From Sphyrna mokarran (taxonomy: Eukaryota), in NCBI GenBank assembly GCA_024679065.1, contig JAGIQG010000002.1:65906001-65970000 (forward strand): DNA of 64,000 nt, read 5' to 3'. This document shows positions 11,956 to 16,463 of the stretch, piece by piece. The notes beneath the pieces were generated by a model. The model was not told the DNA's origin. It searched no databases and worked only from the letters and a program-made list of their open reading frames with translations. The position numbers and the translations under genes were made by a program. Position 1 is the stretch's first letter, and each line of letters starts with the position of its first letter.

Positions 11956-12829
11956 AACATTTTTTTCTTCTCTGGTCTTCTCATAGTGCAATTGGTATGA
12001 ACTGACTTAAGTAAGCTTGAACAGACTTAGTAAGCCTGTCAGTACAAAAGAATCTACAATTTTTAGTGCTTGGACACTAGTTTTTCCATAAATACATGCT
12101 CAAATTTCAAGTTCACAAAAAAGATATTTCATAAAGCAATAAATCACTTTAATTTTCTTAGGTGTTCCATCCACAAATAAATAACCCTTGGTATTGCTTT
12201 AATCTCTTGGACTTGTCAGGCAGAATTTTCCAGACCCATCCACCACCGGATTCATGGTGGGCAGGGGATGGAGGACCATGCACAGGTCTCTTGACCTCGG
12301 GCAGAAATTTCTGGCCTTGGGGCGAAGGTGGATGGAAAATCCCACTGGTAATACAAGAATATAAAGACAGAGCAATTGAGTTTCATAGGAAAAGGAGGAG
12401 TAGATCTTTTAGTTCCTTGAGGCTGTTCCACTATTCGATTAGATCATGATTAATATGTGAAATCCATATACCAATTTTTGCTTATATTGCTTAATACATT
12501 TGGTTCGCAAAAATCTATTAATCTTCAATTTTTAAAATTCATGGTTGATCAAGCATCAGTTGGAATTTCTAAAAAATGTTCTTAACTTCCACCACTCTTT
12601 GTAAAGTTATTTAATGTTCATTCCTGAAGACTGGCTCTAACGTTTAGACTTTGTACCCCATTCCTAGTAACCACAATCCTAATTCTAGTACAAACTAACA
12701 TGTTATCGGAATCATCCTGTAAAGAAAACAGTATTTTATAATGCTCCAGATTCTTATTTATTTTAGCTTATATTGGAACCAGGAATCGAGGTAGTCTGTT
12801 AAGCCACATATATTACATCTATACAGAAC

Positions 12830-13220
12830 CTGATCCAAAAAACAATATTCTTGCTACAGTGTGCTTCAGAACTAGCCATGCTCCTAACCAAATTATTCCA
12901 TTATAACTACAAAACTGGCATGTATCCAGCAATATAACAAATTGTCCAGATATGTCCTCCCACTAGAAGCAGGACATCCAACCAACCAATTATTGCCCCA
13001 TCAGTCTACTCTTTTATCAGCAAAGTAATATAAGGTGTTATCAATACTGCTATTAAGTGTCATTTACTGAGCAATAATCTTCTCACTGACACTCAGTTTG
13101 AGTTCTGCCAGGGCTATTCAGTTCCTGGCCTTCGTCCAAACGTAGACAAACAAATTGAATGCAAGTGGTGAGTATGAGAGTAACTGCCATTGACATCAAG
13201 AAAGCATTTGACCAAGAACG
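12830..13220 (+). mobile_element. CR1/L2-group LINE RT fragment
   Basis: aattattgccccatcagtctactc (NYCPISLL) and gccattgacatcaagaaagcatttgac (AIDIKKAFD). Confidence 0.65.
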
Positions 13221-13539
13221 GCATCATTATTTTTGTACTTGTCCACTCATTTTGCCATAATTGGACTGCTCAATCTATTTACTCCTGCACAGGATGCATT
13301 AATAACAACACAGTGACAAAACCAAGAACACACACTGGCTTGTCAGATGTAATACAAAAAAAAGGAGAATTAAAGTGATCCCAAATACTGTTTCTTCCCG
13401 GAAAACAGAATTTGAACTTTTGTTCTAATTTTACTATATCTTTTCAATGTCCAGTGCTTCTATAAAGTATATGGTTACTTTATATGACAAATCCATTTTG
13501 TGATTTCATACTTTCTTAAAGTTGCTTTTGTTCATTCAG

Positions 13540-13710
13540 GAGTACTGTGGTGTGCCCAATAATTGATGTGATTAGTGATGACACATTTGAGTACATGGCA
13601 GGGTCAGACATGACCTATGGTGGATTTAATTGGAAATTGAACTTCCGATGGTATCCTGTACCTCAGAGAGAAATGGATAGAAGGAAAGGAGACCGAACCA
13701 TCCCAGTTAG
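13540..13710 (+). CDS. GALNT1: GALNT1 coding exon
   Basis: ttcag|G AGT ACT GTG...GTT AG|gtaagt; 171 nt; [56 protein letters not shown]; phase fits previous exon. Confidence 0.97.
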
Positions 13711-13949
13711 GTAAGTATGCAATGTGAGCGGTGAAGTACTTTCAAAAGACCGGTTTTCCAATGTTTAGAAAACAATATTGTATCAAAACAAAGTGTAACA
13801 TTTCATACAAATATCTATGGTTTCTTTTTGCTGTACTGATACAATTTGAAATGTCTGATGCGTTTGTTATCGTGTGTCCTTACAGAAAAAGGGGTGTAAA
13901 GGAGAAGATTAGACCAAAGTTCAGAAGTGCAGCAGAAACTAACAAATAA

Positions 13950-14262
13950 ACAGTTCACCTTGGCCTTTTGGCTAAAATTAAGTGTAGTATCGACATGCTG
14001 TACTTGGTTGAAGTCGTTAGGTTATATTTTAGCTTCATTTGAAGCAATTTTTAAAAGCGGCATCTCGGCCTTTTGGCTAAGGTGCAAATGAGACCAAGCT
14101 TGGAGCAGGGGCTATGCCTATTCCAATCAGCTTGGATCATGTAGATCAAGACCAAGATAGGTGAGAGCCCTATCTTGTCAGCTTGGATTGGGAATGTCTC
14201 AATTTGTTAAAACTCTGAATTAGACTTGATTTGATTGAATTGGAATAAAAACAAAAAAAAAA
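13950..14262 (+). mobile_element. U2 snRNA-derived chimeric retroposon (SINE-like; two U2 5'-end copies and an A-tail)
   Basis: 13959-13991 matches U2 nt 8-40 at 30/33; 14063-14081 matches U2 nt 7-25 at 19/19; ends in AATAAA plus A-rich tail at 14244-14262. Confidence 0.7.
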
Positions 14263-16463
14263 CTGCAGCCAACTATCCACACAGTAATTTAATTGAGGCT
14301 GATATTTTACAATTTCCATTATTAAAATGTTGTCAATTCATTTATAAGAGCCAAATCTCTTTCTTTAAGATCCACTTATTATCAGGAATTTTGGCTGTTA
14401 AATTAAAAAATGTTCTGTAAGGGACACTAAGCTCTAATAAAATTCCAATGAAATAAAGTAATATTCATGTAATATGCCTAAAGTGCAAATAATTAAATAT
14501 AAACATGCATAATAAACATCCTACAGCATTTTGACTGTTTATATAATTGAGGTTGTTAAAATAGTGGCATAATTATATTTAAATCTGTATTTTCACTTAA
14601 TGGGTATGTCAAATAAGTAGGACTATTCCTTTCAATCAGGACATACAAATTAAAGTTGTATGAGGCCGTCTTTTGTTAGTTTAAACATTGAAATTAAAGT
14701 AGTAATAAACAACAAAACATTTCAAAAACTGAAATATTTTGAAGCATATTTTCATTTCTTCACTCATCTGTTTCTCTCTTCCTCCACTCAAGTTGTTGCT
14801 CTTGCCTAAATTCACTTCTTTTGGTACCGGGTGCCCTTTATATTCTGAAGTGAGCCTAGACAGTGAATAATGAGTGGTTATTACAGTACTGAGTTTGGCC
14901 ATACCCTTTGATGACATTGACACCTGCAGTGAGGATCATTCTCAGTATTAGGTTTGGCCATTTCATCGTTTTTGTGCTGACCCCAATTGAGATCAGTGAA
15001 TGTGGTTTGGCAGAGAGGGGGGCTTAATGATTGTGTGGAAGAGAAATTTGTTTGCCACTTCAGCTCTATTCCCTGGGGGCAGGCAGTGCCATATGCTGCT
15101 ACTTGCATGGCCCGTACAATGTTCTTCAGTATTGTTGAAGAATACGCAGAAGAGGTTGTTTGTGATGCCACCTGGCATGGGGAATTGAGCTGAGCTTTCC
15201 CACTATCTTCCCAGCTTGGAAAAGCTCAGAAATCTAATGGATAAATTTGCTATGCCATCAATGCAGTCACAGAATCTTTTCTAAATATGCATTCTTCCAT
15301 GGTTATTTGACGACCCCAATTAAAATTGCAGAAGTGGTGAATATATTCTGTAAAGAAGATTACAGATTGCAGTAAATCTCAAGGTTGCCATAAAAGTATA
15401 GATCAAAATTTAATGAGTATAATTCAAATGGAGGGTGAATATTGACATTTTTATTTTGTTAAAAAAAAATAAAGCTGTGCTTACATTTCTGACAAATAAG
15501 ACGTGACCTGAATAGTTCTATACATCATGAAAGATTGGGCATCAACATCCATGTGGGATGATTCCAATCAATGAGTTACTTATTTGAAAGGTTATTAGTT
15601 TAGAATAAACTATTGCAGTAAAGGAGGCAATTGACCACTCAAAATTAGCAGTCACTTTAAATTTATTTCAGTGAATGTGGCATTTAATGTATCAAAAGAT
15701 GCAAAAAAGTTATGATGAAGTGTTCAATAACATTCAGGTAAAGGTTCACTTATAAATAGTGAGTAGACTTGGGCCTTCCGGCAGAGGATCTAAAGCCTGA
15801 AAAGTCTGTCTCCCAATTCTAAGCAACTCCAATCCCCCCCATACTTTTCTGGCTTTAATTGAAGCCAGAAATTGGGCAAGCAGCCAATATATTCTGGGGG
15901 AGTATGTTGGAACCATACATATAATAAAGCTTTAGACTTCATTGTCGCTTTTTACTTTAACTATGGTGGGCAAAAACTTTAGCTGCCTCATAGTGAGAAT
16001 TTGAATTCAGAGATCAGTGCTGTTACATCAATCATCTGATTAGAATTGCCAGCCTGATGAGCTTCCACAGTTGGGAACATTCCATAGACTTTCCCTCAGA
16101 GGCCACCCTTGACTACAAGACCCCAAAATTTTTGTTCTTCATGGTGCACCCTCCTCACCCCTTGACATTACAAATCAGCTTGATCGTCAAGGACTTGACA
16201 GGACCTGCAGCCTTACTAATGGCTCCCCTACCAAGCCTGGATGCCAAACCTCTCAATGTGTGACATGAACCATGGTGGTGACATTGCAAGAATGTCATGA
16301 TATTAAAATTCATTGCGCGTATACAAGAATCTGAATTCCCAGCTTCTACACATCTATTTGACCTATCCATTCCCAAAATGTTGGGTAAATAAAAAATTAG
16401 CCCATTAACTTTTGAAATATTGCCTTGGCTCATATATATGTTTTCAAATGCATTTGTTTTTAG

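Follow-up and report, generated by a model that had tools for sequence, protein, structure and literature searches.

A U2-like sequence beside a GALNT1-like exon

Why does an intron of a shark gene contain a piece of U2, a spliceosomal RNA, and is this piece a gene, a chance chimera or a member of a family that multiplies? The question is raised by a segment of the window, the stretch of 64,000 nucleotides of Sphyrna mokarran DNA analyzed here, whose parts are collected in Table 1. The segment lies on the same strand as a coding exon and starts 248 nt beyond its end, close to the ~250 nt given in an initial annotation of this DNA. The match of the translated exon to the GalNAc-T1 chain 1xhb_A fits a GALNT1-like label, which does not separate the gene from GALNT13, a close paralogue of GALNT1.

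The genome's own U2 gene (L031) is the reference for U2 numbering and identity throughout. Against it, the head of the segment matches U2 nt 8-40 at 30 of 33 positions, leaving three changes, and positions 14063-14081, annotated as a second stem-loop I, match U2 nt 7-25 at 19 of 19. The initial annotation had also correctly read a repeated 11-mer (present at 14127 and 14178), AATAAA at 14244 with a tail up to 14262, and the lack of a clear target-site duplication (TSD), none being found at the window copy on re-check. Its U2-like words 3' of the second loop fared less well: the word at 14100-14110 is there but is private to the window copy, occurring in 1 of 92 copies.

An Rfam scan of positions 12000-16000 gave a single match, to U2 at 13954-14149 (33.7 bits, E 3e-4; gathering score 46), and U2 was still the sole match at E up to 1, so that the scan gave no sign of a tRNA, 5S, or 7SL head; no ribozyme matched in this region. 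Runs of four and five T occur inside the element. No match to the U2 promoter was found upstream of the window copy, which is most likely a dead-end insertion without a promoter. Being old and slightly truncated, with nothing suggesting function, the intron copy is probably inert. A functional U2 gene or U2 variant was rejected for this locus given the score below the gathering threshold, a body unlike U2 nt 41-191 and the missing promoter match.

Table 1 Features of the U2-headed element in the window and of the neighboring host exon.
Feature	Positions	Strand	Remarks
Coding exon of the GALNT1-like GalNAc-transferase gene	13540..13710	+	54/55 residues identical to 1xhb_A; AG/GT borders
Whole element, subfamily A	13959..14262	+	~92% to family majority; without U2 nt 1-7 and without TSD
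Head, U2 snRNA nt 8-40	13959..13991	+	Family majority has nt 1-40, 40/40 to the genome's U2 gene
Antisense arm, predicted partner of head nt 10-35	13999..14024	+	21/26 pairs (A), 22/26 (B)
Small hairpin, then A-U5 run resembling an Sm site, without G	14032..14052	+	
Second U2 piece (nt 4-27), predicted stem-loop I with extended stem	14060..14083	+	
Hairpin unit 1 of the tandem ~54-nt duplication	14087..14137	+	Unit 1 vs unit 2: 0/1000 shuffles
Hairpin unit 2, containing the 9-bp inner stem	14139..14190	+	Same comparison of units 1 and 2
Third hairpin, 7 bp in the family, disrupted in the window copy by two G-to-A changes	14196..14213	+	
AATAAA and A-rich tail	14244..14262	+	

A family of U2-headed retroposons

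The window element is one copy of a real family of U2-headed retroposons. A 28-nt motif of its body has 3,492 matches in the genome at ≤3 mismatches (control, 0), a search with the whole element yielded 3,418 candidates, 40 of which were scored and proved near-full at 86-91%, and the junction of head and body of subfamily A recurs exactly 246 times (control, 0). In order to avoid selecting for the head, we picked copies by the body, taking 60 of the first 64 exact matches to the body motif; the four omitted were known headed copies. In this sample 54 of 60 copies start within U2 nt 1-23, 15 of them exactly at nt 1, and six are 5'-truncated, while none of the 60 continues into a longer common element. 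The U2-headed, A-tailed, non-autonomous family that the initial annotation had put forward as a candidate is thereby borne out, as is its expectation for a genome-wide search: about 3,500 copies, a shared 5' end, an A-tail, and TSDs in about one fifth.

The same counts bear on the idea that U2 was joined independently, many times, to the 3' end of a longer LINE, or that the window holds a one-off chimera. The general precedent of U6/L1-type chimeras, as found in the available text of PMC4494074, is the sole point in its favor; 246 copies with exactly one junction, the 3,492 motif matches, and a body-picked sample in which 54 of 60 copies have the head and none forms part of a longer element effectively rule it out.

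The family has a length of about 310 nt including its A-tail. Of 104 copies examined, 92 are near-full and fall into two subfamilies: A (n=78), with a head reaching U2 nt 40 and 92.8% identity to its own majority, and B (n=14), with a head reaching nt 37 and 91.0% identity. The family looks old and quiet, because even the best copy has only 97.3% identity to the majority. TSDs with a score of at least 8, 9-22 nt long, were found in 19 of 90 and 11 of 55 copies, compared to 0.4-0.5% of mismatched flank pairs. No target motif appears 3' of the tail in 90 copies except for a bias toward T at +1, and a mutual comparison of the upstream flanks of 60 copies revealed no common abutting flank but one pair sharing a Tx1 tail. 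Tandem pairs of elements occur nine times among 181 copies. In a survey of sequencing runs, DNA runs of 8 studies and 6 organism codes contained 40-60% of the words sampled from one copy; no run known to be RNA was listed with them, and six runs that may be RNA had small shares.

Two arrangements were seen in passing. At G000:C335:60920617-60921333, two copies stand back to back in opposite orientation, ~100 nt apart. A tail variant in which G/T-rich letters follow AATAAA, like the last bases of the LINE described below, is found at L216, L217, L223, L224, L238, L242, L248, and L252.

Anatomy and predicted RNA structure

The family majority consists of U2 nt 1-40 (40/40), 68 nt of other sequence, U2 nt 4-27 (23/24), a further ~170 nt, AATAAA, and the A-tail. 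The initial annotation had called the element dimeric, a term that we drop because the U2 repeat comprises 24 nt only and the likeness between the 68-nt spacer and the 3' part is not significant, 239 of 1000 shuffles scoring equally; a dimer of two like monomers is rejected on the same count. An origin of the body from the 3' half of U2 (nt 41-191) was also discarded, with 251 (3' part) and 567 of 1000 shuffles scoring equally, and U1 gave no match. The 3' part instead contains a tandem duplication of a ~54-nt hairpin unit (0/1000 shuffles) and a third short hairpin.

The annotated 9-bp inverted repeat at 14153-14177 is present and belongs to a hairpin found throughout the family, where it is spelled otherwise. 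At this inner stem of hairpin 2, two changes of the window copy preserve a base pair, and each arm variant is found in 2 of 92 copies. A perfect octamer, a kind of motif that occurs in snRNA distal elements, is found in the family majority at positions 131-138 (window 14082-14089); it is intact in 67 of 92 copies and altered in the window copy. This octamer may be incidental, since stem pairing accounts for half of it.

The predicted fold of the body is better than that of shuffled sequences (z -2.6 and -3.4). When one subfamily is folded alone and the positions differing in the other are scored, these positions show less pairing than the body does on average (0.37 vs 0.62, P 0.0003; 0.45 vs 0.66, P ~0.006-0.007). 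The differences between A and B thus avoid paired positions, which suggests that the source RNA kept its structure.

A further prediction concerns the head itself. Positions 48-73 of the majority are complementary to head nt 10-35, with 21 of 26 pairs in A (13 Watson-Crick and 8 G-U) and 22 of 26 in B, values equalled by 8 (A) and 1 (B) of 5000 shuffles. This fold is predicted for 76 of 83 copies as well as for the window copy; in the model the head loses its native stem-loop I and nt 24-35 are covered. The initial annotation considered pairing of the U2 segment with U6 or with branch points in pre-mRNA possible in principle; this idea runs contrary to the predicted fold, in which the antisense arm would sequester the head. 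Instead of being an adaptation, the arm might have been left behind by fold-back synthesis. In the U2 head of the LINE the corresponding arm is weaker, with 17-19 of 26 pairs, a value given without a null.

These structural features are also what descent from a remodelled, once-functional U2-variant snRNA gene, retroposed repeatedly as processed pseudogenes, might leave: differences between A and B that avoid paired positions, a body that folds better than shuffles, and an Sm-like A-U5 run between hairpins. Selection on RNA structure would, however, also be expected of a retroposon master. The body shows no significant likeness to U2 nt 41-191 and is followed by an A-tail, and no near-identical intact source is seen, the best copy being that at 97.3%. 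At the interrupted U2 gene on contig C949 described below, moreover, the body is inserted into the gene and does not replace its 3' part, since U2 nt 40-191 follows. We therefore regard such a gene as an improbable source.

A Tx1-like LINE as a probable partner

A Tx1-like LINE in the same genome likely moved the element, judging from the sequence relationships that follow. It has RT and zf-RVT domains and an ORF1 with ZCCHC3-type and CCHC domains; the best homologue of its RT is from a ray (78%), and most RT homologues contain PF03372. Three fragments from its endonuclease region gave no Pfam match. Its copies are mostly dispersed and 5'-truncated, with an average identity to the majority of 91% (20 copies, range 70-96%), compared to 91-93% for the element, and the ages of the two overlap.

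Sixteen long LINE loci were fetched, of which eight reach the ORF1 region. Two of these eight (L336 and L321) start with U2, up to nt 57/58. In L334 and L326, and weakly in L330, the 5' end is U1 and a U2 remnant comes next (L334:4767-4846; L326:4344-4424, oriented; L330:4455-4524), the same stacking of a U1 head before a U2 remnant as in the crocodilian Tx1-2_Crp and Tx1-11_Crp. L332 shows a weak U2 remnant, and L325 and L333 have no snRNA head. The 15-nt TSDs of L321 and L334 enclose the snRNA head, which therefore moved with the LINE. A U2 head up to nt 57/58 would be expected of an insertion at the U2 site with a ~20-bp TSD, read from the U2 promoter; reptile Utopia elements have 20-bp TSDs (PMC4640811, available text).

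At their 3' end, some LINE copies abut U2. Among 21 tail-bearing loci picked by zf-RVT, one has U2 from nt 39 onward 3' of the tail, and junction searches add several more: the junction falls at U2 nt 38/39 in L052/L270, L073, L133, L139, and L156, and a few nt off in L266 and L056. At L133, L139, L156, and L073, U2 nt 39 to ~56-60 has a LINE tail on one side and another truncated LINE piece on the other. Earlier copies seem to receive new LINE insertions in their U2 heads.

The LINE also abuts copies of the element head-to-tail. A Tx1 tail lies ≤60 nt upstream of 8 of 181 copies, two of them from the 60 body-picked copies, with an expectation by chance of ≤2e-4 per copy if 20,000 tails are assumed. 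The likeness of the element body to the LINE 5' UTR is not significant (21-266 of 300 shuffles). For the comparison of the 3' part with LINE 3' UTRs, which the initial annotation had recommended, a weak likeness of the AT-rich tails was found (0-44 of 300 shuffles), but no clear shared tail.

U2 genes and the Keno site

Contig C949 carries a cluster of four intact U2 genes with a repeat spacing of ~8 kb. At C949:17389775-17390226, 39 kb beyond the intact genes, we find U2 nt 4-37, a B-type body, an A-run, and U2 nt 40-191, in this order. Both the ~80 nt upstream and the downstream flank of this interrupted gene are homologous to the intact U2 genes, and the upstream ~80 nt contain a PSE-like word at the expected place. 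Beyond about -80, homology is displaced by an insertion, and 3 nt are gone at the start of U2. The initial annotation had imagined a U2 locus hit by such an element and read from the U2 promoter; this gene is one U2 locus interrupted by the element, with its proximal promoter region kept. Nevertheless, C949 may be only a target and not a source, because its element has 86% identity, the most diverged of the 14 B copies, 3 nt are absent at the start, and the distal upstream region is displaced.

An upstream match to the U2 promoter was seen in 1 of 99 copies scanned, which is the C949 locus. A separate search with the U2 promoter found seven loci, none with the element; it missed the known C949 locus too and is therefore insensitive. 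The hunt for a promoter-bearing master copy, which the initial annotation had advised, identified none by this insensitive search, including for subfamily A.

U2 resumes directly 3' of the element, from nt 38-42, in 7 of 181 copies, five of the seven coming from junction-directed searches; none of the 60 body-picked copies is followed by a long 3' part of U2. Six of the seven lack a promoter, and their target could have been a U2 retrocopy. Targeting is clearest at L265, where a headed copy with its A-tail lies inside a U2 retrocopy, between U2 nt 4-42 and nt 38-114, such that nt 38-42 are duplicated, and a short repeat flanks the whole. U2 resumes at nt 39 also 3' of Utopia and Keno (PMC4640811; PMC6136364, available text), and the two subfamily heads, ending at nt 40 (A) and nt 37 (B), both stop within 2 nt of the Keno cut. 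The link to the Keno site of U2 that had been proposed on general grounds is thus seen in the genome. U2 targeting is nevertheless weak, as indicated by the absence of a motif after the tail in 90 copies and by the single LINE locus among 21.

We estimate at about 0.65 the probability that this family of ~310 nt and ~3,500 copies has been copied by the Keno-like Tx1 LINE and owes its transcripts to a U2 gene into which it had inserted at the Keno site. The LINE endonuclease would nick U2 DNA at nt 38/39, allowing the body to enter a U2 gene, whose upstream Pol II promoter would then yield an RNA starting at U2 nt 1, so that the head is the 5' end of the host gene. Priming by the LINE reverse transcriptase on the A-tail would disperse copies with the head, mainly to sites outside U2, at which they would lack a promoter and be dead ends. 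In the RNA, the predicted pairing of the antisense arm with the head would bury the bases that pair with U6 and branch points, and the RNA would then be harmless to splicing. The inner stem-loop I may be the remains of a former head that lost its place at the 5' end when a headed copy entered U2 again, an event of the type seen in L265. An insertion into a U2 gene would explain the start of the head at nt 1, its end ≤2 nt from the cut, and the lack of an internal promoter.

Alternatively, the heads could have been added by the Tx1 reverse transcriptase switching template to free U2 RNA, with a master read from an unrelated upstream promoter and insertions into U2 genes as a side effect of the leftover target preference of the LINE. 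Template switching is the model of Kojima for SINEU (PMC4494074, available text), and U2 and U1 pieces do cap truncated or full LINEs at varied joints (L273, L018, L334, L326). Insertion at the U2 site cannot supply U1 heads; template switching therefore also adds heads, at least in the LINE. U2 retrocopies without a tail and with TSD-like ends are common, and no promoter-bearing A master was found. Nevertheless, random switching does not predict that the heads of both subfamilies stop within 2 nt of the Keno cut. U2 nt 1 is where 5' ends accumulate; the flanks there are unrelated and share no 5' extension, whereas SINEU-2 has 5' extensions as left by an outside promoter (PMC4494074, available text), and an interrupted U2 gene with its promoter region does exist. 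We consider this origin of the element heads unlikely, although clearly less so than descent from a U2-variant gene. Transcription from an interrupted U2 gene remains our preferred reading, and the position of the heads, ending at the Keno cut and starting at the U2 start, would make this family a concrete answer to the question of how SINEU elements are transcribed.

Comparison with known systems

In the available text of Kojima 2015 (PMC4494074), SINEU-1, -2, and -3 are described from crocodilians only and are moved by Tx1-Mar; their transcription is left open there, U2 having no internal promoter. The shark element shares with them a U2-derived head, an A-tail, a length below 500 nt, thousands of copies, internal T-runs that speak against Pol III transcription, U2 pieces that recur, insertions in tandem, TSDs in some copies, and a probable Tx1 partner; some of the Tx1 families have U1 or U2 heads. 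SINEU prefers Mariner-N4_AMi as target, whereas the visible target of the shark element is U2 at the Keno site; the shark element further differs by its cartilaginous-fish host, one copy under a U2 promoter region, the fold-back arm, and the duplicated hairpins. The family is SINEU-like in structure, by its head, tail, and copy family.

As in Keno and Utopia, U2 resumes at nt 38-39 after the A-tail of the shark element and of its LINE (PMC4640811; PMC6136364, available text). Unlike Keno, the shark element codes for nothing. The LINE lacks the strict U2 specificity of Keno (1 of 21 loci) and, being mostly dispersed, is nearer to the relaxed Tx1-Mar group.

R2 elements are co-transcribed with 28S rRNA genes (cited in PMC4494074, available text), and the shark element, likewise without a promoter of its own, would rely on a host RNA gene. 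R2 excises itself from the host transcript by a ribozyme, whereas the shark element keeps the 5' end of the host as its head. Short, internally deleted derivatives of R2 exist.

The shark SINEs CmiSINE and SacSINE1 are, like the element described here, short, A- or repeat-tailed, and found in cartilaginous fish; unlike it, they begin with a tRNA head containing Pol III boxes and end in an L2 tail (PMC5499810, available text). The word snRNA is absent from the available text of that paper. No U2-headed SINE from cartilaginous fish was found in the literature, including the available parts of PMC5499810, PMC5381603, and PMC5786205; Repbase, Dfam, and most subscription papers lay outside this scope, so a database entry may exist. 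As far as the literature search reaches, the family extends snRNA-headed SINEs beyond crocodilians, and it provides an example in which a captured splicing RNA is predicted to mask itself.

A broader reading, which we put forward tentatively and hold to be somewhat less probable than its converse, is that the LINE and the SINE form a pair without promoters of their own, bred in spliceosomal RNA genes, keeping the 5' end of the host as head and using the cap-and-export route of snRNAs, with the arm of the SINE disarming the captured U2. If true, it would answer how snRNA-headed SINEs are transcribed and would represent a second origin of SINEU-like elements, in cartilaginous fish.

Other U2-derived sequences

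Many U2 retrocopies without a promoter were seen, at L037-L047, L053, L059, and L060 (for example G000:C1548:51502381-51502570). Their 3' ends lie ~35-40 nt beyond that of mature U2, so that the 3'-box region is included, and no A-tail follows; several have TSD-like repeats, and we read them as retroposed pre-U2 RNA. A diverged U2 variant with another upstream region and other stems IIb-IV is found at L052 (G000:C1548:101854485-101854897), broken at nt 38-45 by tandem 3' fragments of the LINE, and pieces of a related variant occur in L267 and L268. Next to the interrupted gene, at G000:C949:17390300-17393607, a truncated Tx1-like LINE abuts nt 46-191 of the next U2 gene copy.
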